Positions 1-40,160 of a stretch of 64,000 nt of DNA are shown in pieces (the first letter of the stretch is position 1; each line of letters starts with the position of its first letter). This DNA comes from a virus: positions 21,150 to 85,149 of IMG/VR virus record IMGVR_UViG_3300044467_000006, one strand, 5' to 3'. Below the pieces are notes generated by a model. That model was not told the DNA's origin. It ran no database searches and worked only from the letters and a program-made list of their open reading frames with translations. Both the position numbers and the translations under genes were made by a program.

Positions 1-1298
1 ATGGAAGCCGCCTTGTACGATACCGTAATGGAATCGCTATTGATTGAAAGGGTGCATGAGTAGCCGTCGTAACCGACACGCAGGCCAATCTCGCCTCCGA
101 CTACGAACTCTTCAGCAATACCATCGTTCTTGCGTTCCGTCTTGACGCTGATCTTGCGCTCGGTAGCGGAAGTGACAACCACAGGGGCTCCAGTAACCGA
201 TAGCCAAGTGACGTTGGAGTTGACTCCGAGGGTACGAAGCATCTTGCGAGCATCGGTGTCTCCAGCGAGAGGCGACAGGGTGGCGAACTCGAAAGTCTTG
301 CCCTTGCCCGGAGTGACGGTGCCGTCCCAAGTGAACGAAGTGTATCCGTACACAATGGCATCTGTGGCAGGCGGATTGGCAACCGCAACCGCAGGCGTAA
401 TTGCGATAGGAGCCACAACCGCTCCAGCAACGTGGCCAGTTGTGGTAGAAAGGTCTGCAAGCTTAGTAGCAGTAAGATTTACACCAGAGATAGCTGTGAC
501 GAGCCACCAGCCGGTGTTCTGCTTGGCTGCGCCCTCGAATTGAGAGTTGTTGGGAATGAGGAGGGTGTCTCCTGCTGATACGCTGGCCCAGTTGATGCTT
601 AGGGTGAACGTACCAATGTTACCGTTGACGGCAATGGCCAGTGTAGGAGAAGTAATGCCGATTGCGTTGCGGTCGCCGCCAGATGCCGAAGCAAGGTCCG
701 TTCCGCCACCGACAATGGCCGAAGCAAAAGCGACAGGAGTGCTGTCTGCGGGAATGGTCACATCAACAGCAATGTTACCGTCAACGACAACAGAGAAGTC
801 AATCGCTGCGGGCTGGCCGATGTAGCTGAAGCGGTCAGTCCAAGGCAGGACTTCCGCTACGTCATCGGTGATCGTGTAGAAGATCAGGTTGCCTAGCGAC
901 CCCGAAGACTTGGCAACAAGTGAAGTGTAAGCGCTGAAGTTGTCTTCGTGAGTCAAAACGGAGGCCGACGCCGCGCCAGTGTTAGTCTTCACGATGATTG
1001 CTCGCGAGAAAGTGTTGGTGATGTCGGGGTCTACTGCTGCGCCAGCCGCTGCGCGGAAAGCGTCAACGATTGGGCCAGACTTGTACTTAGAGACAACACT
1101 GGAGATGTCGTCCGAGGCGAACTGGTTGTCCTCAAGCTCGGTTTCCTCAGAGAAAGAGGGGCCACTCTCGGCCTCGCCCATCAGAACGATAACGCCCGTA
1201 GTAGCAAGGCCACCATTGTTTGGAGCGACGGTGATTGATGGATAGCTGCCGGGGATGATCAATGAGCCCCCGATAGGATCGACATATTCCTGAGCCAT
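1..1298 (-). CDS. Contractile tail sheath protein (C-terminal part runs off the window start)
   Basis: Missing from the ORF track because it has no stop in the window. Hand translation from ATG 1298 gives MAQEYVDPIGGSLIIPGSYPSITVAPNNGGLATTGVIVLMGEAESGP, the PGxY...GEAxxGP N-terminus of myovirus sheaths. I read only the first ~110 codons by hand. Confidence 0.8.
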   Translation of the reverse strand, partial: MAQEYVDPIGGSLIIPGSYPSITVAPNNGGLATTGVIVLMGEAESGPSFSEETELEDNQFASDDISSVVSKYKSGPIVDAFRAAAGAAVDPDITNTFSRAIIVKTNTGAASASVLTHEDNFSAYTSLVAKSSGSLGNLIFYTITDDVAEVLPWTDRFSYIGQPAAIDFSVVVDGNIAVDVTIPADSTPVAFASAIVGGGTDLASASGGDRNAIGITSPTLAIAVNGNIGTFTLSINWASVSAGDTLLIPNNSQFEGAAKQNTGWWLVTAISGVNLTATKLADLSTTTGHVAGAVVAPIAITPAVAVANPPATDAIVYGYTSFTWDGTVTPGKGKTFEFATLSPLAGDTDARKMLRTLGVNSNVTWLSVTGAPVVVTSATERKISVKTERKNDGIAEEFVVGGEIGLRVGYDGYSCTLSINSDSITVSYKAAS

Positions 1299-1300
1299 AA

Positions 1301-1771
1301 TTATTGTACTCCCTGACTGTGAAGATTGTGCTTCTCCACATAGCTTGCTGCCGCACGAAGGCGGATTGGGTCGTCCCTAAATCTTCCAAGTCCTTGATTG
1401 CAAGAATCACATAGCAAGCCGCGAACCAAGCCGCTTTCGTGATCGTGATCGACCTTCCAAGTGCCGCGACCAGAAGGAGTAGCAGAGCGACAAATCGCGC
1501 AGGCTCCCTCCTGCTCTGCAACTCTCTTTTCAAATTCACCGGGAACCAGTCCGTAAGTCCTGACTCGTTTACGATCCTTGTATCTCTCTGCGTTCTCTTG
1601 GTAATTAATACGCTTAAGTTCTTTCGCGCGGTCCTTGTGCGTCGCAACCCACTCTTTGTGATATGCATTGCTGCACTTAATGCAATACGAGCGCTTGCCG
1701 TCCTTAGTTCCTCCAGCTTTGTGGAAGTTCTCCAGCGGAAGTGCTAACTTGCATTTCGAGCACGTTTTCAT
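1301..1771 (-). CDS. Recombination endonuclease VII-family (HNH-like) homing endonuclease
   Basis: N-terminal CxxC Zn finger; C-terminal CAIC...VDHDHESGLVRGLLCDSCNQGLG motif. Confidence 0.85.
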   Translation of the reverse strand: MKTCSKCKLALPLENFHKAGGTKDGKRSYCIKCSNAYHKEWVATHKDRAKELKRINYQENAERYKDRKRVRTYGLVPGEFEKRVAEQEGACAICRSATPSGRGTWKVDHDHESGLVRGLLCDSCNQGLGRFRDDPIRLRAAASYVEKHNLHSQGVQ

Positions 1772-1810
1772 AGACGCTTTCAAGATTAAGTCTTGTTCTA
1801 CAGGGGATAT

Positions 1811-4087
1811 TTACTTGAGCTTGCCCGGAGTTGGAATTTTTGGCCCAACCGTCGCGCCGCTAGAGAACTTGCTAGGTGGCATGAAATCGCTGTAATCACT
1901 TGTGGGCTTTGGGATCGCCTTTGGTGCTGCCTCTACGGCTGGGGCTGGTGCGGATTCGTGCCCGGCTCGAATGGATGCCGCCTGAACGTTTCCGGCATCC
2001 ATCCTTGACTGAGGCATGGCTGCCTTGCCCATCGTCCCGGCCTTACGGGGAAGCTTGGGCTTGGACATGGGAGGCTTGCCGGGGGTTGGGTTGCCACCGG
2101 GCGGCTTAGCCATTGGAGGGCCCGCCTTAGCCATTTCTGACGCTCCTAGAGGGCTTCCGGCTGCTGCCCCGGCAGAACTAGGGGCCTCGGGAGCCAAAGC
2201 GCCCTTGCCGAGAGCCTTGCCCTTGGTAATTTCGCCACCAGAGCCTTCGTCTAGTTTGCCCTTGACTTCCTTGCTCGGCTCGGCCGGACCGGGGGTCTCA
2301 GCGCCTACGTTCTTGATTCTAGGGCCACCCTTCGCGGCACTGTCCGTCGAAGTAGGACGGGCATTAGCGTTCTTAAGGTCGATGAAATCTTCTGACTTCT
2401 TGGCATCGCGCTTACGCTCTTCCGCAATAGAAAGAACGTGGTCAGGCCCTTCGGAATTTGGACCCTTCTTTGGATCGCGGAACGGGATTTGAGACAGTTC
2501 TGCTCCTTCGCGAGCATGGACGCCAGCAATGCGGTCACTGTCGTCAGACTTCAGTGTAGGCTGGCCCTTACGCTTAGCAGCAATCGCGGCAGCGGTATCT
2601 ACGACCTTGGCCGCTGCATTCTTGTCACCCTTAGCTTCGGCGTACTTGATGTCGTGGAGATTCTGGCGACGGACCGAAGTCTTTGATGGGTAGGTAGAAG
2701 CAGTGACATTCTTCCCCATCCACTCGTCAGACTTGTTAAGCTCGGTCGTCCACTCGCCATCCTCAAACGACTTCTGGAGATCCATCATGCATTGGCAGCC
2801 TTCACCTTCAAGGCCACAGAGGATACAGGCTTCAGACTTGCCCATCTTGTTGCACTTACACATTTCAGACTTACATTCCTTGCAAAGACCCTTCATCTCA
2901 TCCTTGCGGTAGGAAGAACCATAGCCCGGCAAACGCGCCTGCCTAAATGACTTGGCGGGCTGAGTGGGTACGGCCTTGGGGGCAGAAACCGCAGCTTGCT
3001 CGGCGGTAGAAACGTTACGCTGTGGCTGGGCCAAACCACGGTCTGGGGAAACAGGACCAGCATGACCGGGGAGAGCGGCCTTGGCAACAGGAGGAGCAAA
3101 AGCCTCTTGCTGCTCTTGAGCTTGCGCGTTAGGATTGGTATGAACAGGAGCCGTGCCGGGTCCGAAAGAATCGGGGTATTCAAACTTAGGGGCAGTTGCA
3201 TTGTGTTGGGGTGAGTCTACCGCCATCTGGCTCGCAGCCTGCGGACTGGCACGAGAGGCCCAGTCCTTTGCAGCAGCCATGGCGAGTTGATGGGCAGCTT
3301 GGGGATCGTTCGGGGTCTGCTTAAGTGCTACGTTTTGTAGATAGCTCTGGTAAACACGCTTCATGGCAACCGCCATATCCATTGCGTGGCTCTTCTTCAG
3401 TTCCTCGACCCACATCGACTCGGGAGAATCTACCATCAGGACGGTGTGGCTCTTTTTGAAGTCCCCGACAACCGCATCGACATTGCCGTTGACTTCGCGA
3501 CTAGCCAGATCCTCCAGCGACTTCGAAAATGCGGTAATCTGGCCTTGAAGGGTATGAGCTAGCTTGCGCTTGAATTCGGCAACGCTTACTTCGCTCTTCT
3601 GGGTGTCGTTATGGCTCATATCCGCTTCCTTTTTGGGAACATCTAGCAACTTGGTTGAATCAAAATTGAGTCTGACATGTCCAACCCCCGAGACTCGCGT
3701 TGTAAGACCTTCTTTGGGAGCCGATGGATGAACTTCCATCCCGGTTGATGGATGGTAGCGCCCGGCATTTTTCCCGTTAACGTAAATAAGTTCGTGCTGC
3801 CCATTCTCAGAGAAAATGACACTCTCTTGGCCCATTTTTCTGCCAAGTTCCATGACATGATCACGGGGAGCATTGTAAACGACGAACACGGGGCTCTTCG
3901 AAGAGCCACCTCCGTAATTGCCGTCTGTTTGCTCGTGTTGAAAGCCCGCTTGAGCCAATAGCTGTTCGAGCCCCTTGTGGCCACCGCCAACCTCTGGATG
4001 GAATCGGGGTTTCTCACCGCTGAGAATAGCGAATGGTTGCCCAGACTGGATGGGGTGTGCAGGAGGTTGCGGGTTTTGTTCTGGCAT
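1811..4087 (-). CDS. Putative internal head protein: DUF3293-like N-terminal domain plus long Ala/Pro/Lys-rich region with many K/[SA] motifs
   Basis: FAILSG...LGRKMGQESVIF resembles DUF3293; about 12 hydrophobic-x-K-[SAG] motifs; small Cys cluster. Confidence 0.5.
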   Translation of the reverse strand: MPEQNPQPPAHPIQSGQPFAILSGEKPRFHPEVGGGHKGLEQLLAQAGFQHEQTDGNYGGGSSKSPVFVVYNAPRDHVMELGRKMGQESVIFSENGQHELIYVNGKNAGRYHPSTGMEVHPSAPKEGLTTRVSGVGHVRLNFDSTKLLDVPKKEADMSHNDTQKSEVSVAEFKRKLAHTLQGQITAFSKSLEDLASREVNGNVDAVVGDFKKSHTVLMVDSPESMWVEELKKSHAMDMAVAMKRVYQSYLQNVALKQTPNDPQAAHQLAMAAAKDWASRASPQAASQMAVDSPQHNATAPKFEYPDSFGPGTAPVHTNPNAQAQEQQEAFAPPVAKAALPGHAGPVSPDRGLAQPQRNVSTAEQAAVSAPKAVPTQPAKSFRQARLPGYGSSYRKDEMKGLCKECKSEMCKCNKMGKSEACILCGLEGEGCQCMMDLQKSFEDGEWTTELNKSDEWMGKNVTASTYPSKTSVRRQNLHDIKYAEAKGDKNAAAKVVDTAAAIAAKRKGQPTLKSDDSDRIAGVHAREGAELSQIPFRDPKKGPNSEGPDHVLSIAEERKRDAKKSEDFIDLKNANARPTSTDSAAKGGPRIKNVGAETPGPAEPSKEVKGKLDEGSGGEITKGKALGKGALAPEAPSSAGAAAGSPLGASEMAKAGPPMAKPPGGNPTPGKPPMSKPKLPRKAGTMGKAAMPQSRMDAGNVQAASIRAGHESAPAPAVEAAPKAIPKPTSDYSDFMPPSKFSSGATVGPKIPTPGKLK

Positions 4088-4200: not shown

Positions 4201-5214
4201 TTATGTCTCGCCCGGCCCATTTATGTCTGGGTACGCAGCAGGAATTACGCCGCGATTGGTATACCTTGGTTCTTCATTGGCTATGGTCTCGGCGTCAACC
4301 TCTGTGTTGATACCGATATAGGGCTTAACAAAGAACTTAGGCCAATACTGGTGGACATATCCGTTCAAAGTGATCATGCGGCTAAAGACAGGCTGAGAAA
4401 CAACAAAAGAAGTGTTGATCTTCACGTCGCCGGATGAGATGGTCGTGCGGGTAAGCCCTCGCGCTTCCAAGAGAACTTCCTTGTATCGGAGAAGAATGAA
4501 GAGAACGATTGAGTGTAGGTAAGTTAGGAAGGCTGGTTCGCCCAAAGCGTGACAACCAATCTCGAAAGACTCTCTAAACTCAACAGATTCAACCGACACC
4601 TGCCTTTTCTGGGGTGCGCTGACAACATACATCCCAGAGAAATTGGAGTTAGCGTTAGGCTCAATGACAATCGTGTAGGGGTCTAATACGTCCAGAATTT
4701 CATGGCTCTTGCCCTTTTTGTCCTTGATTAGCTGGCCCGGGAAAACCTCCAAATCAAAGGTGCTCTTCATGGTCATGCAGCCGGTTGACGCCACATAATT
4801 GAGCGGAGTGAAGGGTCCTCCATAGACAATTACAGATTCGTCCTTGTCCATCTCGACAGTCTGATAGTGAACGTCGCCTAGGGTTTGGGCGTCTTCATTG
4901 GACGACGTGACCGCAATCGTAATACAAGGCACCTTGCTCTCGTCAATGCGAGTATTCATAAATACCGGGATGTCGGTATTCAAGAACCAGTCCTTGGCGA
5001 TCTTGACTTGCTCTTCGCCATAGATTTTGTAGGTCAAGTCATCTTTGGGAAGCGAAGCGAACACGTAATCTAGGAGCGCCGGGTTTTCTCGAATGTCAGC
5101 CAGCCCCGCAATAACGGCCGTCCTCACAACGATGTCGCTCTGGAAAATGCCCAGAGCGGTCCGCTGATCTTCAGGAAGTAGTTGGATTGGAGTGGTTAGA
5201 TATTGGCGCGTCAT
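4201..5214 (-). CDS. Virion structural protein (neck/tail-completion region)
   Basis: 337 aa, upstream of the sheath, preceded by CAATCTT; assignment by position only. Confidence 0.45.
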   Translation of the reverse strand: MTRQYLTTPIQLLPEDQRTALGIFQSDIVVRTAVIAGLADIRENPALLDYVFASLPKDDLTYKIYGEEQVKIAKDWFLNTDIPVFMNTRIDESKVPCITIAVTSSNEDAQTLGDVHYQTVEMDKDESVIVYGGPFTPLNYVASTGCMTMKSTFDLEVFPGQLIKDKKGKSHEILDVLDPYTIVIEPNANSNFSGMYVVSAPQKRQVSVESVEFRESFEIGCHALGEPAFLTYLHSIVLFILLRYKEVLLEARGLTRTTISSGDVKINTSFVVSQPVFSRMITLNGYVHQYWPKFFVKPYIGINTEVDAETIANEEPRYTNRGVIPAAYPDINGPGET

Positions 5215-5229
5215 AAAAGTAAGATTGTG

Positions 5230-6048
5230 TTACCGATGGCCTGTAGAGGCTTGCTGGATAAGGGCGAGAATTTCCGGCTTGATTGTCTGGTCCCATTCGC
5301 GCTCGGCCCAAGTATAGGCTTCGTCCATGAGTTTTTTCGCTGGAACGCCCGGATGAACCCACTTCCCAGATCCTTTCTGCGAGGAAGAAACCACTCGGAA
5401 GGTCATAGCCGTCTTCTGGATCATTGGACTGGCCCCGCCAATCTGGCGCTGCATGACTCTCATACCCTGAAGGAAAGGGGTGCCGGTCTGCCCTTGCCTG
5501 ACTTGGCCGATAGCTCCCCAACCCTGATAGGTGCCTTCCGATGTCTTGATGGGCTTGTCCATCACGTCGAGCTTGTGCAGTGCTCCGACTTTGGGTCGGC
5601 CATCGATCTCTTTCTCAATCTGCTTCATGTTGATGTTGGCGCGCTTGAGAGCATTCATAGCCGCAAGCCGGATTGGAAGGGCGTTAGGCGCAGTATTAGC
5701 GGCCCCCTTGATAGGGAAAGGGATGACCTTGTAACGGGTGCCCTTCTTGGATGTCATGGCATTCTTGAGAAGGTCGTCGATCATCTCGTGTCGAGGCATT
5801 CCTTCTTCAATCCACATCGCCTTCTTATCTAGGGTGACGGTCCATGCTCCACCTCCAGCGGCTTCATAGCTAAGAGCATTCAGGTATTCCTGTCGAGAAG
5901 TGCGAAGCTTGGACTGGGCGATCTCCACAACCTTTGAGTACGTCATGGCAGCAAGGTCTTCGGCTGACTGCGAAAGCATTGCATCTGCAATAGCCTTCAC
6001 CCGCTCGTGCATAGCGGAGATATCGCCAAGGTTGAGGTTGAGGATCAT
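5230..6048 (-). CDS. Virion structural protein (head-tail/neck region)
   Basis: 272 aa; YLNALS...WIEEG...VIPF...TFRVVS...WVHPG pattern resembles conserved large-myovirus neck proteins; synteny. Confidence 0.45.
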   Translation of the reverse strand: MILNLNLGDISAMHERVKAIADAMLSQSAEDLAAMTYSKVVEIAQSKLRTSRQEYLNALSYEAAGGGAWTVTLDKKAMWIEEGMPRHEMIDDLLKNAMTSKKGTRYKVIPFPIKGAANTAPNALPIRLAAMNALKRANINMKQIEKEIDGRPKVGALHKLDVMDKPIKTSEGTYQGWGAIGQVRQGQTGTPFLQGMRVMQRQIGGASPMIQKTAMTFRVVSSSQKGSGKWVHPGVPAKKLMDEAYTWAEREWDQTIKPEILALIQQASTGHR

Positions 6049-9000
6049 TAGTGCTTACCCGATGGGTTCTGACCTCCACCGGGGTTCGGACCCGGCTGGG
6101 GGTCACTTGCCTTGCCGTCCTTGGCGTCACGGCCAGAGACTCCGTTGATGTGGCCTGCGCCAGACATGGCTTCTGCGTGGTTGTCTGGAAGAACACGACC
6201 AGAGTACGAACGGCGATAGACGGTCTTTCCTTCTACTTTGCCGCTATTGGAAATGTGAGCCGCTTGCCCGGGGTCTTGGTGGAACTCGCGAAAGGGCATG
6301 ACTGTATTCTGGCCCTCTACGTGGATAGCGATGCCACCGTGGGGCTTAGCGGGAGTGTTATGCTTGGCTTGCTCTTCGGGAGTAGGCAGCTCCTCCTTGT
6401 CGAGATCCGTACCTTGCGGATACGGCCGATCCATGCGAGGCTCTACCTTTGTCCCGGCAGCCTTGGCGATTGCTCGGGGGCCGCGAAGTAAGGAGCTTTT
6501 CTTGATACTGAAGTCAGTGTTCTGCACCTTCACTTGATTGTCGATACCCGTACGTTTTGTCTCGCGGCGACCGCCTACGATTTCGTAAGCCTTCCCCAAC
6601 TCATCTTCCTTCTTGCGGACCTGATCGGCCCAGACAGCATTGCCCTTAAGGCTCTTAGACTTCTGAGTAGGCAGAGAACCGTATTGGGTAGGCTGATAAT
6701 TCATCTTCTCAGGACCAGCGCCGTATGTATTCCTCATGTGAACAGGCAAGGGCTCATCTGGATCCTGATCGGATAGCGGAGCTTTGCTCTCGGGAGTCCA
6801 AATATGGACGGGCGTTCCTACAGGATACTTCTGGCGAGCGAACTCGTGGAACGCATCGTGAAGAACTTGGTGAACTGGATGCCCCAATACTGTGCGGAAC
6901 TTCTTTTCATTCTCAGAGCCGAAGTCGTGCTGAATCTCATCGATATGGAGGCCCTTGTCGTCGCCCGTATAACGAATCCATCCAAGGCCAGAAACGGGCT
7001 CGCCGGGGTGGTCAGAGTTGTGGCCCTCATTCATAGTGACACCCTGCTTGAGCATCGCTTCTGTCGCCGCCGTAGGTAAAGAAACTCGCAAAACCTTGGA
7101 TGCGTCCTTGCTATGTTGCTGACCGCCATCCCATTTACCTTCAGTCAAATAGACAGGTATGCCGGGCAGGGAATCGATATGGCTTTGTAGCTCCTTAGAA
7201 CTGAAGTTGCCGTTGGGCAGTCTTCCGATCTTGCCAAGCGCTTGCGCTGCGCCACCTAACTCAGCGGGCTTCACTTCACCACCCTTGGCCTCAATGGAAT
7301 CGCGGATCTTGCGAATCTTGTGAAGACCGGGTTTGATGATAGTGGGCTTCACCCCATTCGCCGCGTGAACCGAATCTGGATCTCGGGCGAATGGCTCAAT
7401 CGCGGTAGGCGCATAGCCCAGCCGCGCGGCGACGAAGTGTTTTTTGCGTAGTTCGTAAAGCTCCTTAGCTTTTTCAAAAGGCACCTTTGGGCTTTGGATC
7501 AACTCTTTGAGCTGCATCACCGCGCGAGCGTGCTTCTCTTTGGTCGCTGACGAAGCCGTCACTTTGGGCGGTGCGCGGACAACTTTTTCATAGGCAGCCA
7601 CGAACTTGTCCATGTACTCTTGGGGGACTTTCGGGTGATTAAGGAGTTGAGTTTTTTGCCCTTCAGAGAGTCCCTTACTGGACAACTGCTTAAGAAGGTG
7701 AGGCAGTGGGGCTTGGGGGCTAATAAGCAATTGGGGCTTCCTATGGCCGGGAACCCTTTTGTTATCGAGAAGGCTGCCAATTTGAGTTTCATTGAGATCG
7801 ACGCGCCGAGCTACACGATCTAAAACATCAGGGCTCTTGTCCTGTATGAGCTTGTCTAGTGCCGCAGGAGACAAACGGGCCTCGTGCCCCGCCAATTTAC
7901 GACGGACGTGGGATTCGGGGTGGTTGGAAAGGAACGATTCCATTTCTGGCGTTAGCGGTTTGCGTTCTCGGGCTTCTAGCAAAGCAGGTAGGGCGTCCGA
8001 AGTGTCTATATCTTCGTCTTTGTTGTCAACGAAGTTGGTCAAAAACTTTTGCTCCAAAGGGCCATCCATCTTGGGATGGTTTGCAAAATCTTTGAGAATC
8101 CAGGCCAATTGGCCTTCGTTGTACAGCGCTCTTTGATGTAGCTTCACATAGTCGAGCATCTCGCTGAGCTTCTCGGGTGAAGTTTCGTCGTTGACAGCCG
8201 CCGCGCGAATTCTGCGGATGTCCGTAGCGCTCTTAAACAACGCCTCCTCAAAGAATTGCTCGCTCTTCTTGACCGCTTCCTGCTCTTCTTGTGGAGCTTC
8301 CTGACTGCCTCCACTAAAGGTCTTAGCCATCAGAATCATGGCTTGGATAGCACCGACGACAGCTTGGTAAGCTTCGGGAGCCTGAGACTGTAGCTGCTCT
8401 AGAACTGGAGCTTGGGCCTTGACCGCCTGTAGAATCTGGGAGATTTTTTGCTTTAGTTCGTCACCAGAAGAGCCACCCTGCGCAGCGGCATTAGCCTGAC
8501 CTTCTGCACGAGCCACCTCGGCTTCGCCTTGAGAAGCCATCTGGTGAAACTGTCGCTCAACGGGAGACAGTCCGTCGGCCATGTTGGTGGAAGATGGAGG
8601 AGGCGGCATTTCAGACGAGCCACCCGAGATGGGCTGTTGGGGAGTAAAGGGGCTTGCGCCTGACGTGTCATTGCGAAGGTTCTGGTGCTTGATAGCGTGT
8701 ACGCCACGGGGCTGTACAGAATGCGTAGGCGTATTGGACTTGTTAAGGCTCTTGAGCTTGTCGGGATCGGGACTAGGAGTCTTGCCAACGTGAGAGTCGC
8801 TCTGGGACTCTTCATCACCACCAACCATCTGCTCAATCTCTGGAGCGTAGAACAGAATTCGGGAGCCGCCGCGCTTCTTGCCAGCGTCCAATGCTTTCTT
8901 GGCTTCGCGGAGATCCAAGCCGACACCGATTGTGATGGTGTCGTTCCATGCCTCTTGGAGTTCCTCGTGGAGTTTGCCTAGTTCTGCAAGGCGTTCGCCA

Positions 9001-9206
9001 GCGACAGAGGCGTAGATTTCGTCCCCGTGGAACAAAAGTACCCGGCCTCCTCGCTCTTCAAGCCATGACCGCAATAGCTTATCGCCACGCTCGATGTCTT
9101 GTGACATCTGAGCGATCTTCTCTGGCTTGTTGTTGCGGATGGCCCGATCTACGGCAGGGCTGATGTTGTCCGCGTCGATGAGTAGGAAAATTTCTTGTGA
9201 AGACAT
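6048..9206 (-). CDS. Multidomain putative head cargo protein: N-terminal mCpol (minimal CRISPR polymerase) domain, helical repeats, GWIR/EIQHD domain
   Basis: Start ATG 9206 overlaps the HNH stop (TAATG). LIDADNI...GGRVLLFHGDEI...TITIGVG.DLREAKKAL.AGK..G fits mCpol; later GLGWIRY...IDEIQHD. Confidence 0.7.
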   Translation of the reverse strand: MSSQEIFLLIDADNISPAVDRAIRNNKPEKIAQMSQDIERGDKLLRSWLEERGGRVLLFHGDEIYASVAGERLAELGKLHEELQEAWNDTITIGVGLDLREAKKALDAGKKRGGSRILFYAPEIEQMVGGDEESQSDSHVGKTPSPDPDKLKSLNKSNTPTHSVQPRGVHAIKHQNLRNDTSGASPFTPQQPISGGSSEMPPPPSSTNMADGLSPVERQFHQMASQGEAEVARAEGQANAAAQGGSSGDELKQKISQILQAVKAQAPVLEQLQSQAPEAYQAVVGAIQAMILMAKTFSGGSQEAPQEEQEAVKKSEQFFEEALFKSATDIRRIRAAAVNDETSPEKLSEMLDYVKLHQRALYNEGQLAWILKDFANHPKMDGPLEQKFLTNFVDNKDEDIDTSDALPALLEARERKPLTPEMESFLSNHPESHVRRKLAGHEARLSPAALDKLIQDKSPDVLDRVARRVDLNETQIGSLLDNKRVPGHRKPQLLISPQAPLPHLLKQLSSKGLSEGQKTQLLNHPKVPQEYMDKFVAAYEKVVRAPPKVTASSATKEKHARAVMQLKELIQSPKVPFEKAKELYELRKKHFVAARLGYAPTAIEPFARDPDSVHAANGVKPTIIKPGLHKIRKIRDSIEAKGGEVKPAELGGAAQALGKIGRLPNGNFSSKELQSHIDSLPGIPVYLTEGKWDGGQQHSKDASKVLRVSLPTAATEAMLKQGVTMNEGHNSDHPGEPVSGLGWIRYTGDDKGLHIDEIQHDFGSENEKKFRTVLGHPVHQVLHDAFHEFARQKYPVGTPVHIWTPESKAPLSDQDPDEPLPVHMRNTYGAGPEKMNYQPTQYGSLPTQKSKSLKGNAVWADQVRKKEDELGKAYEIVGGRRETKRTGIDNQVKVQNTDFSIKKSSLLRGPRAIAKAAGTKVEPRMDRPYPQGTDLDKEELPTPEEQAKHNTPAKPHGGIAIHVEGQNTVMPFREFHQDPGQAAHISNSGKVEGKTVYRRSYSGRVLPDNHAEAMSGAGHINGVSGRDAKDGKASDPQPGPNPGGGQNPSGKH

Positions 9207-9631
9207 TAGGAGATCCTCTTGTTGTGTTTCCGCGAGTTGCAGGACTTGCAAGCAGGGCGCAAGTTAGCTGGCCAATTGGTGCCACCTTTAGATAGAGGGA
9301 TAACGTGGTCGATGGTAGTCCCCTCAATTTTGCAGTCCGCAAGCTTAAGCCAGCACTTCCCACCCCACATTGCCTTGCGAGACTCCCACTGCGACAAGCT
9401 GCATTGCCCTTTAGCATTTCGCTTGCGGGCGCGTCGGCAGCTTTCTGCGAGAGCGTGGACTTGTTTCCCGTGAGTGGTTTCTCTGTAGGCTTTCTGGTAG
9501 ACGGAAACCTTGTCCTTGTTGGAATCCCTGTATTTTTGGGCTGCTTTGTTTTCTGCGTCAGGGAATTTGGCCAGATAAGCAGCCCTGTACCTGCGACTCT
9601 GCTCTGGAGTAGATTTACCTTGACTTGCCAT
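9206..9631 (-). CDS. HNH homing endonuclease
   Basis: TIDHVIPLSKGGTNWPANLRPACKSCNSRK is a canonical HNH motif. Confidence 0.9.
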   Translation of the reverse strand: MASQGKSTPEQSRRYRAAYLAKFPDAENKAAQKYRDSNKDKVSVYQKAYRETTHGKQVHALAESCRRARKRNAKGQCSLSQWESRKAMWGGKCWLKLADCKIEGTTIDHVIPLSKGGTNWPANLRPACKSCNSRKHNKRIS

Positions 9632-15435: not shown

Positions 15436-17388
15436 CTACTTCTTGCCGGGGATACGGCTCTTTGAAGCTCTACCAGATTCCTTACACGCTGAACAAGTTA
15501 CGCTATGATCGGTATCTCCAAACTCCAAAACGTGTTCGCCACGCCCCTTGCACTCTTTGCACGATCCTGAATCCTCATTCGGACTCTTCTCAGCCATCTT
15601 GATATCGAGCTTGGCGGGCTTGGGCATTCCGCTCGTGTCGGTAGTCTTGATCTTGGGGGCTTGGGCCGCATTGGCCTGAGTGATCGCCGCTAACGCACCG
15701 GGGGCCATCGGCTTAACCCCAGCCGTAGAAGGCGCAGTAGGGGCCGCGATCTTGCCAGCGGGAGCAGGAGCGCCACCTGACATGCCCGGCGTAGGAGCGC
15801 CCGGCAAAGCTTTGGCTAGCTCTTCCGCCTTCTTGAGCACACCGATAAGGTTCTTCCTAAGCTCTTCTAGAATTTCTTGCTTGGTCATATCTTCCGCCTT
15901 CTTAATGGTACCCTTGTAGGTTTCGGTACTCGGCCTCCATTCGGCATCCTTGCCGCCAGTCATACGAGGCTTCTTCTGAAACTTCGGATTGCTCTGCGTA
16001 GGAATCTCTCCGTACTGGCCGGGAATCATGCCGCGCTTCTCGGGGACAACACGGTATCCTTCGTGGAAGTGACGAGGCAGCGGGCGCTTGGTACTCATGC
16101 GGCCACGAGGGTCTGGGTCTGCGATGGTCTGGTAGCCCTTAGCTTCTGGCGTCCAGATATGGACAGGAGCACCAGCTAAGTCGCCCGGCCCACGAGCCCA
16201 TGAGTCAAAGCCTTCTTGTAAGACTTCGGCTGGGTGTTTATTACCAAATAGCACTTTGGCAATTACCTTGCGCTGATCTTCTGGAAACTGCTGCATGAAG
16301 TCGGCTAGGTAGCGCTCGCGGTGTTCAGGACGGCCCTCGCCACGGCCAATCGCCTTATCGACAGCCTCGGACAGCATAGCAGGCCAAGGGCGACCATAGT
16401 CGGTCTGCACTTCGTCTACCATGACTCCAGACTTGTCGCCAGTGTGACGAACCCAGCCAATAGTATCAGGACCAACCGGGTGTCCACTCTGAGTAGACAT
16501 CTCGTTCATCTGTCTGAAAGCGCCCATAACTCCAGCTTGCTCAAGCTGCTGCTTGTGCTGCGGAGTCAAGTCTAGACGTAGGACGTTAGATAGCTCGTTA
16601 GAGTGACGCTGAGTTGCTCCTGCGGCGTGATCGAACTTACCAGTGCTCCAGTTATACTGAGCAGCCGGTTGGGAGTCGATGAACTGCTGGATGCGCTCGC
16701 GAGTGAAATTACCGCCGTAATCACGACCAACACGCATCAACTGGGAGCGCATCTCCGGGGTTAGATCCTTCTCGTTAATAGACTTGATGCCTTGCTGGTC
16801 AAACCAGTCGCGAAGACCGCGAAGCTTGTTCGTGAGGAAGTTGACTTCCAATGGATGGTCGCTAGCCTTGACTAGCTGGAACACCGGAGTTTCGCTCTTG
16901 CCGAGCTTGCTACCAAAGAGATCGTACTCTGGGGCGTTTCTTTCCCAGACGGCCCATTCGTTCTCGGGAAGCGGCAAGGGCTCGCTCTTTCCTAGCAAGA
17001 AGGCGTCAGCCTTGTGCGCTTTGAACTTGGGAGCAGGCAGGCGTGAGGGGTCGCTCATTGCCGACTGAATCTCGTCTGGAATCTGATGGTCGTCCGCCCC
17101 AAAGCCAAGAGACTGGCGGTGGAGGTCATAGACCAACTTGTGTTTCTTGGCGGCTTCGTTAGAACCAGAGGCAGCGGCAGCCCGCATCATCCCGAGGTGA
17201 TAGGCAGCGCCCTGCACATGGTGCTTGCGCTTGTAGTCGTTGTAGGCTGCATCTTCGGCTTCGCCGCGAGGCTTACGATTGACAAACTCTAAAGTGCCAG
17301 CGCCCCGTTCTAATTCGGGGATGTCGTCGGCTGACAAAATGTAGCGGCGTTTAGGTCCATTGGACCACTCTGGAAGCTTAACGGCCAT
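15436..17388 (-). CDS. Putative head cargo protein with GWVR/EVQTD domain and Zn-finger tail
   Basis: TIGWVRH...VDEVQTD...HIWTPEAK is paralogous to 6048..9206; flanked by LGKSE twice and IKKAE/LKKAE. Confidence 0.6.
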   Translation of the reverse strand: MAVKLPEWSNGPKRRYILSADDIPELERGAGTLEFVNRKPRGEAEDAAYNDYKRKHHVQGAAYHLGMMRAAAASGSNEAAKKHKLVYDLHRQSLGFGADDHQIPDEIQSAMSDPSRLPAPKFKAHKADAFLLGKSEPLPLPENEWAVWERNAPEYDLFGSKLGKSETPVFQLVKASDHPLEVNFLTNKLRGLRDWFDQQGIKSINEKDLTPEMRSQLMRVGRDYGGNFTRERIQQFIDSQPAAQYNWSTGKFDHAAGATQRHSNELSNVLRLDLTPQHKQQLEQAGVMGAFRQMNEMSTQSGHPVGPDTIGWVRHTGDKSGVMVDEVQTDYGRPWPAMLSEAVDKAIGRGEGRPEHRERYLADFMQQFPEDQRKVIAKVLFGNKHPAEVLQEGFDSWARGPGDLAGAPVHIWTPEAKGYQTIADPDPRGRMSTKRPLPRHFHEGYRVVPEKRGMIPGQYGEIPTQSNPKFQKKPRMTGGKDAEWRPSTETYKGTIKKAEDMTKQEILEELRKNLIGVLKKAEELAKALPGAPTPGMSGGAPAPAGKIAAPTAPSTAGVKPMAPGALAAITQANAAQAPKIKTTDTSGMPKPAKLDIKMAEKSPNEDSGSCKECKGRGEHVLEFGDTDHSVTCSACKESGRASKSRIPGKK

Positions 17389-26400: not shown

Positions 26401-29400
26401 TTAGCTCCGATTTACAGCAACGTCGTATCCGCCCCACTTGCCGTCGATGGGCGCGTTCGGGGCAGACTCCCATGCCGCTTCAGTTGGATATTTGGCCGAT
26501 GGATAGTTGGGAGTTGCTTCGTAGTTAAGGTTGTGCTTGACTGCCAATTTGTTCCACAAGCCATGAGCCAGCGAGGAATGAATCAACCCTCGTAGGTGCG
26601 TAGCTCCCCAATGCTTGGTGGCACTTGCCATTAGGCTCTCGTACATGGGAGTCCCCAGCCCCTTGCCGGTGTGTTCGTCGTTGATGTTGGCAAGGTCGAT
26701 CTGGGCATACTTACGAGTCTCGTTGTTCCTGATAACTGGAGTATCATCCACGAACAACGACGCTCCACCGACGATGCGATCCCGATGGTAGACGTTTGCG
26801 ATAGTTGAAGGACCGAACGTTCCGTTGCTCGCGTGTAAGGTCATCCTGTATCCAGCGTTGCGGTGCTCTGGCGTCAAGTAGTGGGTTGCGTCGTAAATGC
26901 GTTCGCCACCCTGAACTCTAGGATTTTCAAGTGGGGGTAGCGTCGCAATCGACTTGGCTAGCTCTTCGTAGGTCGGCAGTTCTTCAAACTTGCGGACAAT
27001 AGAGGTGTGGACCTGCTTGCCCACCAAATCTCCGCCGTAACCGCCGCTGTCGTTTTCTTCGGCATGCGGATCGGTTCCAGAGAAATACCTGTCATCATCC
27101 ATGTCATAGCCCATCTTAGCCGGAATCGCGGTATACGTAGTCGGCAGCCAGCCCGGGGGTTCGGCGGGATCGAGATCGCGGAGTTTGGCAGCCGCATCGT
27201 GCCCGGTGATTCGCACTTTGATGTTCGGGCCATGCTGCTGACGAAGGTGCTCGTGGAATGCCTCTAGAATAGCCTCGTGAGGGTCTACGTTTTTGCCGAA
27301 AGCAATCTCGTTAATCTTGTCAAGATGATCCGACGGCATATTGGAGAGAGTCTCTAAACTGCTCGCCTTCCAGAAGTAAAACATCTGTGGAGGATTCACC
27401 CTTCCGTTCGTGATTTTTGCCTGTTCAAGCGCATGCTTGTAGTTGGCGGTAGCACCATGCCAAGAGAGGCCGGCCTTGTCCTGCGGACGGAAGTCTGACT
27501 GAATCTCAGAAATAAAGACCTTCCCATTACTATCTACAGGACGATAACGGACCCACCCGAGAGTGTGGTTGTCGAGAGGGTGGATGTCCTTCTTACCGCG
27601 AATAAGCTTCTTGAAGGTTGCCCAGACGCCAGATGCCTTCATCTGCTTGACGTGCTCGTCGGTTAGGTTGACTTGGAAGACGCTGTCTGCATCGCGCCTA
27701 ACATGCTGCTGAGCCCCACCGTATTTTGCAGACCCGACATTGAACTCCTTGACAGGCAAGGAATCGATATACTTCTGGACACTTTCGGTCGAAACGAAAT
27801 CGGACTTCTTCTTGACCGGGCCTGTCGGACGATTCTTTGGAGGAATCTTTGCGATCTCCTCGGGGGTCATATCCCTCATTTCGCGGGCACGGTCATAATT
27901 GAGTTGCTTGGGAAGCTCGTTAACGTGAGCCCTCCCTCCACCGGCAGTATCAATAAGGTCGCGGACCTTACGCCAAATGGCACTGCCGAATCGAACGACA
28001 ACGTGAGGAGACTTCGCTCGATAATGCGCGTTAGGGGACGACTCCTTCATAAGTTCCCCGATGGCCTTACCTAAAGAAACAGCGGTGTGTTCGGTTAGCC
28101 ACTGAGGATCGAGCCCGTAATATTGCAAGAGTTGATCTTGCTGAGCCATCTTACTATGAAGGTCTTTAACCCATGCCTCTGGAGCATGCGGAGATTCTGC
28201 CAGATAATTGTAGAATGCGTGAGCTTTCTGTTGCGCGGTATTCCTTGCTCCTTGCCAGTGCTCGTCTTCTCCCCAGTTACCTTCTGGCATAACAGCGCGG
28301 GCCTTTTCGATCATCTTGTTGACCGTGCTCTCGGGAAGATTGGAACCTCTCAGCAGTTCTCTATAAAAGACACTGTCGAACGGCCCGCGATCAATAGCGT
28401 CATCTCTCCAAGCTGGGTTTGCCTTGGGGTTGTTTAAGAAGCTTAAGGTCTCTAATTCGGAATCATTGCCAGCAGCAAGGTGCTTGTTCCAAATAGTCTC
28501 CAACACATTCTCGGGGATATGTTTGCTTGTAACAGCCTCGGCGGTGGCTTGTGTGACAGGCGATACTTCAAAATGCCCATCGTTTAGCATCTTATTCCAA
28601 TGTTCGGGCGCCAATTTGCTACCGTAGGATTGCAGGAGGTGACGTAATGCCTCGTCGTGCTGGCCTTTGCTCCAAGGGACATTGCCTTGAGAAGCAACTT
28701 GGTAAATTGTATACCCATTGTCATCGTATTGGTAATGACCTTCATTGTCTAAAGCTGGATTTCGGTTGAACACTATCGGCTTCATATCCAAAATGGCCGA
28801 AGCATGCTCCGAAGTAAAGTTAGGGTGCTCCATCAAAGGAAAGACGGAAGCAACCTGCTTTGCAGTAGACATCAAGTGACTAATGTGGGCAGGTGTCAAA
28901 GCCGGGGAACGGGCTAGATTGTTCTGGACGCCTGCCTTGAATTGGGGAAGGCTCTCTTCGCCCCAGTCGCTATCTCGGCGGAATCCTTCTGGATTGCCGG
29001 ATGGCGAGGCGGATGTGAACTCGGGGCGGGAAAGAACGTAATCAATCCATTCCGGCTTGGCGTCAGAGCGATTGAGAATGCTATCAATGATTGAGTGACG
29101 CTTGGAATTTCCCAAGAGCTTGACCGCATTTCCGTGATCAACACTCCGAACGAACTCCACGATCGCGCCAACGTCCGGGTCTTGCGGCGGTCGTTGTAAA
29201 AGGTAATCAGTCAGTCGGTCGTCTACGCTCTTATCCTTTAGCCCAAGGGCATCTCTCCAATAAAATGGATCGCTTTCCGTTCTGTCATTGTATCGGTCTA
29301 TGTTTCCCCACGGAAAGCGCGGATGGTTCAACCCGAAGACCGCGTTTGCTTGGTGCTCGGGCAGGGCGTAATTCACACACTGAGCGTGCTTGTCTAGCAA

Positions 29401-36916: not shown

Positions 36917-38341
36917 TTAGCCCTTGACGTTATCCACGAGCACATTTTTTCTGGGCTGGGGAACCGTGAGTGTGAGAAAGCGGAAGTGCGCCTCCGGGAT
37001 CGAGAGGTCGGTCACAGCTAGCTTGAGGCGGCTGTAAGGCGATAGCTCACGAACTTCCATCGTGTCTCCTTGGATGAGGTAGCCAGTCACGAAGCCCGGG
37101 ATCTTGGCCCCGGTGTCATCGAACTGAACCACGTTCGCGCTACGATTGACGCGGCCAATCCACTTGGTCGTGGTCCCGCCAACTTCCGAGCGGTACACGT
37201 TGAAGTAGAGCGGTAGTGCGCCACCGCCAGTGGTGATGTCGAAGGTGATACGGTCACCAGCGACAGACGCCACGGTTAGAACTGCGGACGCAACGCTTTC
37301 CCCAAGCTCGTTACACGCGGTAACGATGTAGTTGTAGTTACCCGTGAGCAGCGCGCCAGTTGCAGGGCTTGCGCTGTTACCAAGGGTAGGAGCACCGGGA
37401 ACGCCGGGGCGGGAAGCCTGCGGACGAGTCTTGCCAGAGAGGAAGCGGGACGCTTCAAGCTGGACGGTACCACCAGAAACCCACTGACGACGGAGGTCCG
37501 CGCCAGAGGCATCTTGCGGTGAACCGGCAAGGATGATGCGTTCCTTTTCGAACGCTAGCTTGTTGTATGCAGCGAGCGACCTCGGGTCGAGGATGAGTCG
37601 ATCCGCGTTACCCATGTTCATCGCAGAGCGAACAGCCGCGTCTTCGATGTTGGCTTGGGTTAGGACGCCCGTACCGTGCGAGCCGTAGCCCGGAACGGTG
37701 GTGAGGGAAGCGATGCCGCCACCCTGAATGACAACGGTTTCGTCGGAGCCGTACTCGCCAAACATGAGATCCTTGGCGTTACGCTGCGCATCCGACTGAC
37801 GAACCTGCTCGCCAAGTCCGAGGACGTTGGGAAGCGGGGCGATAGTACCCGGGTTGCCGTCGAACACGCCGATGTTGCTGAAGCCTTCCTTACCACGGAA
37901 GAGGTCGAACTCAACGTCAGCCGAAATCTTCTTGGCTGCCGAAGACGCAGCACGCTCAGAGGCGTCCTTGCCGTCAACGGTGTTGACCATGTTGGCCACT
38001 AGCGTCACGCGACGAACGTGTGAGTAGTAGCACATGGGAACCACGACACGGACGTAGTCGTCCGTGAATTCCTGACCAACAGCGCCTTCGATAACAGCCG
38101 TCCCGCCGAAGCCGCCGTAGCTAAGCTGACGATCAAACTGAACGAGGGTGCTCTTCGCGGGGCTCACCTTAAGCATCTTCTGAAGCTTAATGTGTGAGTC
38201 ATCGAAGGTGACATTGTTCATAACCGGGGAGAGATCCTCGGTCTGTAGAGCGCTGCCTTGGACGAGTGAACCGGGGGCCGCATCATATCCGCCCGCCTCA
38301 AGTGCCTTAACTAGCGACTGTAGTTGTTCCAGTGCGTTCAT
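36917..38341 (-). CDS. Major capsid protein (Herelleviridae-like)
   Basis: LVKALEAGG...GSALQTEDLS N-terminus; FDRQLSYG; C-terminal FN3-like insertion; downstream of protease/scaffold; strong terminator. Confidence 0.88.
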   Translation of the reverse strand: MNALEQLQSLVKALEAGGYDAAPGSLVQGSALQTEDLSPVMNNVTFDDSHIKLQKMLKVSPAKSTLVQFDRQLSYGGFGGTAVIEGAVGQEFTDDYVRVVVPMCYYSHVRRVTLVANMVNTVDGKDASERAASSAAKKISADVEFDLFRGKEGFSNIGVFDGNPGTIAPLPNVLGLGEQVRQSDAQRNAKDLMFGEYGSDETVVIQGGGIASLTTVPGYGSHGTGVLTQANIEDAAVRSAMNMGNADRLILDPRSLAAYNKLAFEKERIILAGSPQDASGADLRRQWVSGGTVQLEASRFLSGKTRPQASRPGVPGAPTLGNSASPATGALLTGNYNYIVTACNELGESVASAVLTVASVAGDRITFDITTGGGALPLYFNVYRSEVGGTTTKWIGRVNRSANVVQFDDTGAKIPGFVTGYLIQGDTMEVRELSPYSRLKLAVTDLSIPEAHFRFLTLTVPQPRKNVLVDNVKG

Positions 38342-38351
38342 TGTATTCTCC

Positions 38352-39233
38352 TTACTTGAGAAGGTGCTCGATGGCGGCGAGATTAACTCGGCCCTCATAG
38401 AACCCCGTGACTAGGTCGCGGTCCGACTTCTTGAAATCTGCGCTTCGCGTAAGCTCACTGAGCTTGGCGGTGATTTCTGCGGGACTGACCGGCTTCTTCG
38501 GTGCTTCTTCCGACTTAGCGACGTAAGAAGTACCAGTGATTGCTTTCTGCATCGGCTTGTTGACGACAGTGGTAACGATCTTGGTTAGTGCCTCGATCTG
38601 TGCGTGTAGGTCAGCGATTTCTGACTTGCTGAATTCCCCGCCGTTACCAGCCTGAGAAACTCCGATGTTCTTGCCTTCGCCCATTGCCATCGGGGGAGCC
38701 CCAGCAGGCGACGGACTTGCACCGGGAGGGGGAGGAGCACCCGCGCCTGCGCCCGGAGGGGCAACAGGAGCCGACGGACCAGCACCCTGCCCACCACCCA
38801 TGACTTGCATGAGTGCAGCCTTCGCTGCTAGGTAGTGAGCCTTGAGTTCCTCTGGAGGAAGCTGAGCATACTCTTGCTCAAGCGCGGCCGGATCAACTGG
38901 CCCGCCTTCGCCCCCACCTTCTTGACCGGGAGCGCCACCCTCCATACCGGGAGGAGGAGCTTCGCCACCAGCCCCCGGAGGTGCGCCACCTTCAGCGCCC
39001 ATCGGAGGTGCGCCACCGCCCGCAGACGGAGGACCGCCCGCACTAGGAGATCCACCCGCAGACGGGGAGCCTCCAGCGGCAGATGCAGAGCCCATACCGG
39101 GGGACGGAGAACCGTCTTCCTCGCGGGCCTTTGCTAGCCTGTTTTGCGCGTCAGCCAGAATTTCGTTGAGTTCACCGTCGAGTTCACCGAGGATGTTGTC
39201 AAGTTCCTGACTTGATACCTTGAGATTTGCCAT
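38352..39233 (-). CDS. Scaffold-like prohead protein (acidic, Gly/Pro-rich)
   Basis: Directly upstream of MCP; low complexity; LAKA, FSKSE, VAKSE, FKKSD motifs. Confidence 0.6.
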   Translation of the reverse strand: MANLKVSSQELDNILGELDGELNEILADAQNRLAKAREEDGSPSPGMGSASAAGGSPSAGGSPSAGGPPSAGGGAPPMGAEGGAPPGAGGEAPPPGMEGGAPGQEGGGEGGPVDPAALEQEYAQLPPEELKAHYLAAKAALMQVMGGGQGAGPSAPVAPPGAGAGAPPPPGASPSPAGAPPMAMGEGKNIGVSQAGNGGEFSKSEIADLHAQIEALTKIVTTVVNKPMQKAITGTSYVAKSEEAPKKPVSPAEITAKLSELTRSADFKKSDRDLVTGFYEGRVNLAAIEHLLK

Positions 39234-39839: not shown

Positions 39840-40160
39840 ATGAACAGATACAAGTGCTTGTCTTGTGGCCACGAAAAACGCAGAACGGAATTCTACGAAA
39901 AACGTAGCAATAGCGCCAAGTTAAGACCTGTATCTTCAGATTGCCGTATTTGTCGCAGCACCAATCGTTCGGTTCAAATGGGCGCGACAATAGATGGAAA
40001 CTGCCAGCGCTGTGGAACGCCAGCGATCCTGTCAAGCAATAAGCAGTGCAAAAGATGCCTCAAACAACAGGGGCTAAAGCAGTGCCGCTCCTGTCGAGAG
40101 GTCAAAATCGTAGAGTTGTGGTTTTACGAGAAGAAGGCTCTCTGTAAGGACTGCCTCTAG
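39840..40160 (+). CDS. Cys-rich zinc-finger protein inserted in reverse orientation
   Basis: Multiple CxxC pairs resembling homing-endonuclease N-terminal fingers; plus-strand CAATCTT 7 nt upstream of ATG. Confidence 0.55.
   Translation: MNRYKCLSCGHEKRRTEFYEKRSNSAKLRPVSSDCRICRSTNRSVQMGATIDGNCQRCGTPAILSSNKQCKRCLKQQGLKQCRSCREVKIVELWFYEKKALCKDCL

Follow-up and report, generated by a model that had tools for sequence, protein, structure and literature searches.

An mCpol-family palm domain at the head of a large late protein in an Mx1-like phage

Results

Organization of the target gene

The 64,000-nucleotide stretch analyzed here (positions 21,150 to 85,149 of the IMG/VR virus record IMGVR_UViG_3300044467_000006; hereafter the window) carries on its minus strand a gene for a 1052-amino-acid (aa) late protein that begins with a palm domain of the mCpol family. 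The sequence AGAGGA lies 8 nt 5' of the start codon, and the same 1052-aa product is predicted by the gene caller in a public collection. No A7 or similar heptamer that would point to a -1 frameshift occurs in the gene, and its C-terminal module is in frame. The gene and the modules of its product, which we call the target, are listed below; the bar in a motif marks the putative cut.

6048-9206, minus strand: whole gene, 1052-aa modular late protein (open reading frame and translation; ATG 9206-9204, stop 6048-6050)
8832-9206, minus strand: mCpol palm domain, aa 1-125 (Pfam PF18182, AlphaFold model, Foldseek, homodimer prediction)
9168-9176, minus strand: D11-A12-D13, first metal-binding motif, family consensus DGD (phmmer alignment to 9nwn and 9mnr)
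9018-9029, minus strand: H60-G61-D62-E63, beta-hairpin motif equivalent to GGDE/GGDD (alignment and column counts)
8532-8831, minus strand: low-complexity linker rich in S, P, Q and G, aa 126-225 (composition)
8736-8747, minus strand: L154-N-K-S157, post-domain L-x-K|[AS] motif, candidate maturation-protease site (homologue conservation)
8280-8531, minus strand: helical module of about 80 aa, aa 226-309 (…LKQKISQILQAVKAQAPVLEQLQSQAPEAYQAVVGAIQAMILMAK), then VKK|SE (jackhmmer)
7287-8279, minus strand: lineage-specific alpha-helical region, aa 310-640 (common only to homologues P0002 and P0003)
6597-7286, minus strand: GNAT-like fold domain, aa 641-870, fold match at about aa 681-867 (AlphaFold, VIA-align, Foldseek)
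6051-6596, minus strand: conserved C-terminal module, aa 871-1052, with LGK|A before it (kept in homologues P0002-P0006)

A preliminary description of this DNA, drawn from positions 8850-9206 (aa 1-119 of the target), had proposed a phage-encoded mCpol domain followed by a disordered linker at the start of a putative virion cargo protein. The strings it quoted are all in the translation (LIDADNI at aa 9-15, GGRVLLFHGDEI at aa 53-64 and TITIGVGLDLREAKKALDAGKKRGG at aa 90-114), as are LNKS (aa 154-157), VKKSE (aa 312-316) and LFKS (aa 323-326). The composition of aa 126-225 is in line with a disordered linker, and this segment is poorly conserved among the closest homologues except at the K motif. 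With mCpol occupying aa 1-125 of 1052, the domain does stand at the N-terminus of a large multi-domain late protein. Its phage origin holds as well: the source is a single 94,360-bp linear IMG/VR virus record, with a CheckV completeness estimate of 57%, that carries a phage-type gene set comprising terminase, portal, major capsid protein (MCP), sheath, and tube.

Identity and fold of the N-terminal domain

We regard it as very nearly certain that aa 1-125 form a real mCpol-family palm domain. Residues 7-120 cover positions 1-114 of the 114-position Pfam mCpol model (PF18182), and the scores of 42.8 bits for the whole protein (E 8e-11), 47.5 bits for aa 1-135 (E 2.7e-12), and 47.3 bits in the genome search all exceed the curated cut-off of 26.4 bits. 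Weaker Pfam matches of the domain are to Cas10 palm 2 and a GGDEF-like family, and PHROGs has no family for it. When all PDB sequences were searched with phmmer, only the two solved mCpol/OptS proteins were returned, each aligned over the whole domain (E 3e-4 and 7e-4).

Structure prediction leads to the same place. An AlphaFold (AF2) model of the domain, built on 63 relatives, has a mean pLDDT of 93.9, and its top six Foldseek matches in the PDB are all OptS/mCpol chains of Panoptes systems (9pd0, 9mnr, and 9nwn; template modeling (TM) scores by target of 0.80-0.85). The best of these reaches E 5e-8 and TM 0.85 by target, with a root mean square deviation of 1.8 A over 118 columns; GGDEF proteins, class III cyclases, GTP cyclohydrolase III, and Cas10 follow. 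The model thus has a minimal palm fold (ferredoxin-like beta-alpha-beta-beta-alpha-beta) nearest to the solved mCpol structures, and the palm domain proposed in the preliminary description stands, both on the full-length Pfam match above cut-off and on the Foldseek comparison. A weak PHROG tape-measure match on the helical part of the protein (E 0.004) was attributed to helical composition and set aside.

Active site and predicted dimer

In the phmmer alignment, D11 of the target pairs with Asp6 of K. pneumoniae OptS (KpOptS) and D62 with Asp57, two residues identified as belonging to the KpOptS active site (PMC12657218). D13 and E63 are present too, and with these four residues in place the active site looks intact at the level of sequence. 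Conservation was counted by column in 156 aligned relatives and by motif in 149 distinct relatives. By column, D11 is kept in 119 of 156, D13 in 145, G61 in 153, D62 in 139, and E63 in 131. D13 together with an acidic residue at both 62 and 63 is kept in 125 of 149 relatives (84%), which indicates selection on catalysis.

The preliminary description had cautioned that the hairpin reads HGDE at the GGDD position and that activity or specificity might differ. The departure from GGDD is real, but the concern carries little weight because OptS itself reads AADG there; the GGDEF motif is nearly absent from OptS (PMC12657218). Histidine occupies position 60 in 9 of 156 relatives, and five of the 149 have the same DDHGDE pattern. 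As for specificity, S35 corresponds to the OptS specificity position S30, with the serine kept in 106 of 156 relatives, and the adenine-contacting N34 of OptS corresponds to E39 in the target and to D or E in most relatives. Judging from this E39-for-N34 difference, base preference or product may differ from that of OptS.

A homodimer prediction with two copies of aa 1-135 scored 0.43, compared with 0.01 for the best control, and so reached our mark for support. Among proteins solved as one-chain pairs, 20 of 30 reach the same mark, compared with 1 of 23 solved as single chains; these counts hold only roughly here since a custom alignment was used. The predicted dimer is symmetric with its active sites facing, and its interface includes residues 55-63, which contain the HGDE hairpin; if the model is correct, an interface at this hairpin is what a cyclase dimer needs. 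Overall, with indirect support from the conserved residues and the predicted dimer, we consider it probable that the domain is a catalytically active cyclase.

A family of proteins with a shared design

An exhaustive HMMER search with aa 1-135 returned 727 representatives of clusters formed at 50% identity (E<1e-3), 250 of them at E<1e-10. The domain is at the extreme N-terminus in nearly all 727, and the proteins range in length from 300 to 1300 aa. For the architecture we used 154 proteins, namely the best 150 representatives by score and four close homologues. The mCpol domain and the helical module of about 80 aa occur together in 143 of them by jackhmmer, and the C-terminal module is recognizable in 33. 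The helical module is single-copy in the source genome; it has no Pfam match, and a profile search of the PDB brought up only a designed protein (E 0.005) and the FAT domain of FAK (E 0.3), which we regard as noise. Myxococcus phage Mx1 also has the C-terminal sequence of the family, …RAGxVxSxDGHxxSSRNPxG.

The target shows all four marks of the family: an N-terminal mCpol domain, an L-x-K|A/S motif after it, the helical module, and a place directly upstream of a gp10-like neck gene. Family members also carry variable inserts, located between the constant parts or after them, among them GNAT, APH, PI3/4-kinase, ART-PolyVal, radical SAM, and DUF5661 domains. In the target, aa 310-640 give only a weak Pfam match to DUF2336 (E 0.16), and the domain that follows has a GNAT-like fold. 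Its AF2 model has a pLDDT of 81.2; GNAT-superfamily or GNAT-like acyltransferase folds account for 49 of the top 50 VIA-align entries (Z 9.2-6.8, 97-138 residues aligned), and the Foldseek matches, weak as they are, are all GNAT. An earlier guess that this middle domain might be a PD-(D/E)xK nuclease, made from the string IDEIQHD, was dropped for the GNAT-like fold on the Foldseek and VIA-align results. Two paralogues in the window contain the invariant elements Q..ID..P, HP, GW.R, and DE.Q.D.

15436-17388, minus strand: GNAT-like paralogue, 650-aa protein
26401-32004, minus strand: GNAT-like paralogue, 1867-aa giant protein

The GNAT-like domain is also seen in other metagenomic giant proteins, where it lies beside NUDIX and canonical GNAT domains.

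UniProt labels a member of the family "Uncharacterized protein," and our literature search, outside which the original 2015 description of mCpol lies, found no account of a phage-encoded mCpol. The new element is an mCpol domain that opens a core late protein, probably a processed one, in Mx1-like phages.

The source phage

On sequence grounds the record represents a large, uncultured myovirus of the Mx1-like kind, Mx1 being a Myxococcus phage. In a tblastn search of 50,697 phage records, Mx1 was the sole match to the target protein, and among cultured phages it alone belongs to the family. For a typical family member, matches to isolated phages in these records came via its insert domain alone, not via mCpol, and a megablast search of the phage records with 20 kb of the window gave no match. 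The MCP of the source phage has more than 1500 metagenomic homologues. A 20.8-kb IMG/VR contig from another sample, IMGVR_UViG_3300044786_000009, contains the full mCpol gene together with a neck gene 99% identical to the one described here; thus, the phage has been sampled more than once.

A fixed position at the head of the neck and tail operon

The target is the first gene of an operon that continues with a gp10-like neck gene, genes for 337-aa and 758-aa proteins, the sheath gene, and the tube gene, the last lying just beyond the window. Its immediate surroundings are as follows.

9206-9631, minus strand: HNH homing-type endonuclease gene (Pfam HNH, E 2.3e-12; its stop overlaps the target ATG as TAATG)
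5230-6048, minus strand: 272-aa HK97-gp10-like/Phage_tail_S-like neck protein, phrog_16819 (PHROG match; its start overlaps the target stop)
4201-5214, minus strand: 337-aa protein (synteny with Mx1 and metagenomic loci)
1811-4087, minus strand: 758-aa protein rich in the K motif (synteny with Mx1 and metagenomic loci)
1301-1783, minus strand: inserted endonuclease VII gene (Pfam)
3-1298, minus strand: tail sheath gene, running past the window edge (Mx1 synteny; weak Phage_sheath_1 match on the continuation)

The neck protein has an Atlas feature score of 0.97 to viral clusters; its scores to the HK97-gp10_like and Phage_tail_S clusters are 0.91-0.92, and the gp10 row gives a structure TM of 0.76. 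Neither the HNH gene nor the endonuclease VII gene is present at these sites in the closest relative, L002, which makes both look like mobile insertions in the late operon.

Mx1 has the same gene order as far as its annotated sheath. We compared 21 loci chosen by their mCpol gene, consisting of Mx1, four assemblies, and 16 IMG/VR contigs; downstream of mCpol, a gp10-like gene is present in 20 of these, a homologue of the 337-aa protein in 19, and a sheath gene in 16. The reverse test, with 17 IMG/VR loci chosen solely by their gp10-like gene, placed an mCpol gene upstream on the same strand in 16 and directly adjacent in 14. Synteny that is near-invariant in both directions makes the mCpol gene a core, position-fixed gene of the Mx1-like lineage, not an accessory one. 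At the exceptional locus (L037:945-2171), which has the gp10-like gene and no mCpol gene, the upstream open reading frame encodes an unrelated 409-aa protein with neither an mCpol domain nor the helical module.

A lysine motif shared with the major capsid protein

Within the 32 aa that follow the mCpol domain, at a distance of 14-20 residues from it, 112 of 149 relatives (75%) have the motif D-K-[IL]-x-[DE]-E-Y-L-x-K|[AS], whereas the same loose motif is found in 337 of 1903 other 32-residue segments of these proteins (18%). The target version is KSLNK|SNTP, and L-x-K-[SA]-N-[ST]-P is invariant in the six closest homologues. A K-S-E consensus, VKK|SE in the target, follows about 18 residues after the helical module. 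Three further proteins of the window bear on the meaning of this motif.

36917-38398, minus strand: MCP (public gene callers start at 38341; motif at residues 10-13, MNALEQLQSLVK|ALEAGGY)
38352-39233, minus strand: 293-aa scaffold-position protein, motif-enriched
41456-45730, minus strand: 1424-aa protease-region polyprotein, motif-enriched

L-x-K-A occurs at residues 8-14 in 116 of 117 MCP homologues, although these are at least 60% identical, so the conservation of the motif among them is not independent evidence. In other 30-residue segments of the MCP its frequency is 1%, compared with about 10% expected from composition, a roughly tenfold depletion. Across the genome the motif is enriched in the scaffold-position protein (z 3.5), the protease-region polyprotein (z 3.3), and the 758-aa protein of the operon (z 3.4), and it is at or below expectation in the portal, MuF, neck proteins, and mature MCP.

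These patterns suggest L-x-K|A/S as a candidate prohead-protease recognition motif of the lineage. The statistics fit a prohead-protease site and a processed internal protein, and they are not proof of either. The description of the target as virion cargo with processing sites is plausible, given that LNK|S falls within the family-wide motif; taking motif statistics and architecture together, we consider the odds that the protein is packaged in the virion to be even.

Other genes related to nucleotide signaling

Two further genes in the genome may bear on cyclic nucleotides.

40157-40879, minus strand: GGDEF protein of 240 aa, domain canonical by Pfam (E 1.2e-9), in the interval from the protease-region polyprotein to the capsid genes
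Genome C1:17044-17286 (L022:1045-1287), outside the window, plus strand: Acb5-like 80-aa product

By sequence, then, the phage carries two different palm-type nucleotide cyclases, one mCpol and one GGDEF. The label "Acb5-like" rests on the identity of the 80-aa product (56%, E 2e-32) to a relative's protein that bears a precomputed Pfam Acb5 (PF26761) hit. Acb5 enzymes cleave 3'3'-cGAMP and defeat CBASS (10.1101/2025.07.12.664507), and such enzymes, like sponges, trigger Panoptes (PMC12657218). The presence of GGDEF and Acb5-like genes in the same phage may be taken as circumstantial support for a role of the target against Panoptes or CBASS. A search of the 94-kb, 57%-complete record found no Cap15-type receptor (Cap15_CD_rec) or SAVED domain, with the reservation that the control genomes gave no match either.

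Discussion

Our favored explanation, to which we give a probability of about 0.45, is that the target delivers a packaged, processed, and injected mCpol cyclase that alters signaling in the host. Under this explanation, two mCpol domains would pair with their active sites facing and convert nucleoside triphosphates to a cyclic di- or oligonucleotide with no trigger, as OptS does. The helical module would act as a carrier or anchor into the assembling particle. The prohead protease would then cut at L-x-K|A/S sites, at LNK|S after the cyclase, at VKK|SE after the helical module, and at LGK|A before the C-terminal module, and this cleavage would free the cyclase and the GNAT-like domain. The freed pieces would enter the next host with the DNA, where the cyclase could shift cyclic-nucleotide signaling before any phage gene is expressed. 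As an example, the cyclase might go on providing a Panoptes-type guard effector with its inhibitory ligand at the same time as the phage's Acb5-like nuclease removes CBASS signals. We think it improbable that the protein serves specifically as such an anti-guard decoy. The most explicit version, in which a capsid-loaded, constitutively active mCpol counterfeits the "all is well" nucleotide of Panoptes-type guards so that the Acb5-like nuclease can remove CBASS signals while the guard stays untripped, we rate at the lower edge of that same small likelihood.

Several observations weigh against a packaged and injected cyclase. The gene heads the neck and tail operon, away from the head genes. The K motif might serve in binding instead of marking a cleavage site, and the relatedness of the MCP homologues limits what their shared motif can contribute. 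Because the helical module has no recognizable relative, its role as an anchor is a guess. The dimer score is only just at the mark, and the model may owe it partly to having memorized the solved dimers of OptS. An effect on host defense would presuppose a host with Panoptes, CBASS, or type III CRISPR. Our literature search found no virion proteomics, product, or activity for Mx1 or other family members. A further counterpoint comes from copies that appear to be catalytically dead. A catalytic residue is lost in 24 of 149 relatives (16%), Mx1 and the nearest sister clade (P0005, P0006, and P0008) among them; the clade lacks D11 and E63. The Mx1 copy (WNM70340.1, L001:9004-10410) reads GAVG for GGDE and has S for D11; its mCpol domain is below the Pfam cut-off, yet the helical module, the family C-terminus (…SSRNPGGK), and the position of the gene are kept. 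Such copies indicate that catalysis is dispensable in some lineages, and thus the domain probably has an additional structural or oligomerizing role.

These dead copies feature in the argument that the palm domain is mainly a structural or dimerizing head of a neck- or capsid-associated protein, with any residual catalysis unimportant. Mx1 retains architecture and position while lacking both acidic residues of the hairpin, the 16% of relatives that have lost a catalytic residue extend the pattern, the gene has the core status and synteny usual for structural genes, and a dimer interface is predicted. However, a purely structural role would not preserve acidic residues across such divergence, and 84% of relatives, including the target, keep the three acidic residues and the G-rich hairpin at 27-40% identity; the serine equivalent to OptS S30 is also kept in 106 of 156. 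We consider a mainly structural domain unlikely. Somewhat less unlikely, though still a minority possibility, is a cyclase that works late in the producer cell and is never packaged, with the rest of the protein serving as an assembly factor or neck-associated part. The nucleotide might then, for instance, restrain a guard effector or host pathway up to the moment of lysis, or set the timing of assembly or lysis. The gene's place at the front of the neck and tail operon, with a gp10-like neck gene next to it, agrees with this idea, as does an intact active site, and it needs no packaging, which is itself inferred. But late expression fits poorly with defenses that fire early, inserts such as ART-PolyVal, kinase, and GNAT domains are typical of injected proteins (PMC5512222), and the L-x-K|A/S motifs that flank the modules match the motif at the N-terminus of the MCP.

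Two other accounts differ in kind. The palm fold is common to mCpol, Cas10, GGDEF, Thg1, and polymerases (PMC12657218), and weak Foldseek rows link the domain to DNA polymerase palm domains in BFVD, so the domain could instead act on nucleic acid as a nucleotidyltransferase or polymerase, for example in Thg1-like 3'-5' addition, tailing, or priming of the injected genome end. We give this little credence: OptS cyclases and then GGDEF are the closest structures by a wide margin, fingers, thumb, and a nucleic-acid-binding extension are all missing from the domain, and a predicted symmetric dimer with facing active sites fits cyclization. That mCpol is otherwise known from defense loci raises the thought of a captured bacterial Panoptes or other defense cassette, kept as an accessory gene that excludes competing phages. 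This is the least probable account of all, since the gene has no effector partner, its neighbors are neck and tail genes, and it is core and position-fixed in the lineage. In addition, no Cap15-type receptor or SAVED domain turned up in the record, although it is only 57% complete and the control genomes gave no match either, and all 727 relatives at E<1e-3 are of phage type, while OptS reaches only E 3e-4 in the far smaller PDB set. We accordingly rejected identity as a Panoptes cassette, given a gene that is core to the lineage and lacks an effector.

The relation between the target and Panoptes is nonetheless close at the level of the domain. Like OptS/mCpol of type I and type II Panoptes (solved structures: K. 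pneumoniae OptS, PDB 9mnr and 9pd0; mCpol, 9nwn), the target domain has a minimal palm fold of about 120 aa, with both catalytic aspartates aligned, S30 kept as S35, and a symmetric dimer predicted. The differences concern both residues and setting. Identity is about 22%, the hairpin reads HGDE (GGDE in most relatives) in place of AADG, and N34 is replaced by E39. Unlike OptS, which is bacterial and stands alone, the target domain is phage-encoded and heads a 1052-aa late protein, and no S-2TM-beta, CARF, SAVED, or HEPN effector adjoins it, the neighbors being neck and tail genes instead. The target system is thus not Panoptes: it lacks an effector partner, and its gene does not belong to the host.

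In its overall design, the protein resembles the polyvalent proteins of phages and conjugative elements (Iyer et al. 2017, PMC5512222), in which a single polypeptide, its gene lying among those of the virion, combines several enzyme domains that are unrelated to each other. The target itself joins mCpol and a GNAT-like fold in one phage late protein, and members of its family carry ART-PolyVal, kinase, and GNAT domains. Polyvalent proteins include GGDEF and RelA/SpoT nucleotide-signal synthases, for which interference with host signaling after injection has been proposed (PMC5512222). However, mCpol is not among the domains described for them (the term occurs zero times in PMC5512222), the mCpol head and the helical and C-terminal modules of the target are not MuF or portal fusions, and its processing is predicted to depend on the prohead protease at L-x-K|A/S and not on a zincin-like peptidase. 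The proposed logic, in which a targeting element is combined with a short motif cut by the prohead protease and the product is ejected together with the DNA before phage genes are expressed, also recalls the internal proteins and Alt of T4. There is no sequence relationship between these and the target, and T4 uses an L/I-x-E| motif and a 10-residue N-terminal targeting peptide, whereas the putative carrier in the target is an internal module of about 80 aa. Phage-borne palm cyclases are also represented by GGDEF proteins (Bacillus phage G Gp350, SP-15, and Bordetella phage CN1), which are the next-best viral fold matches; these have the canonical PF00990 domain of about 160 aa, not a minimal mCpol, and do not head a neck-operon protein.

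Our findings change the setting in which mCpol is considered. Work on it has so far dealt only with its part as signal synthase in bacterial Panoptes, and here it is a core gene of a large phage group, fused to a putative carrier that also bears kinases, acetyltransferases, and ADP-ribosyltransferases. If the domain is active, these phages would make immune-type cyclic nucleotides, going beyond the degradation or sequestration of such signals, and whether a virus can counterfeit or jam inhibitory (guard) signaling would become a directly testable question. A counterfeit guard signal, if it exists, would add a third layer to the succession from defense to anti-defense to guard. Putatively active and dead variants occur naturally side by side in the family, and L-x-K|A/S provides a candidate protease-site grammar for spotting capsid cargo in this lineage.

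Additional features of the phage

PI3/4-kinase-like domains, which are among the inserts of the target's relatives, are repeated in at least four proteins. The window also carries a tail-fiber protein and a MuF-position protein with an intein-type LAGLIDADG insert. Homing-endonuclease segments appear in the following genes.

53834-57001, minus strand: terminase large subunit, 1055 aa, containing a LAGLIDADG homing-endonuclease segment
48803-50737, minus strand: 644-aa protein adjoining the portal, with a LAGLIDADG_3 domain and a weak intein-splicing match

The phage therefore has two intein-like insertions in packaging and head genes, one in the terminase and one in the 644-aa protein beside the portal.

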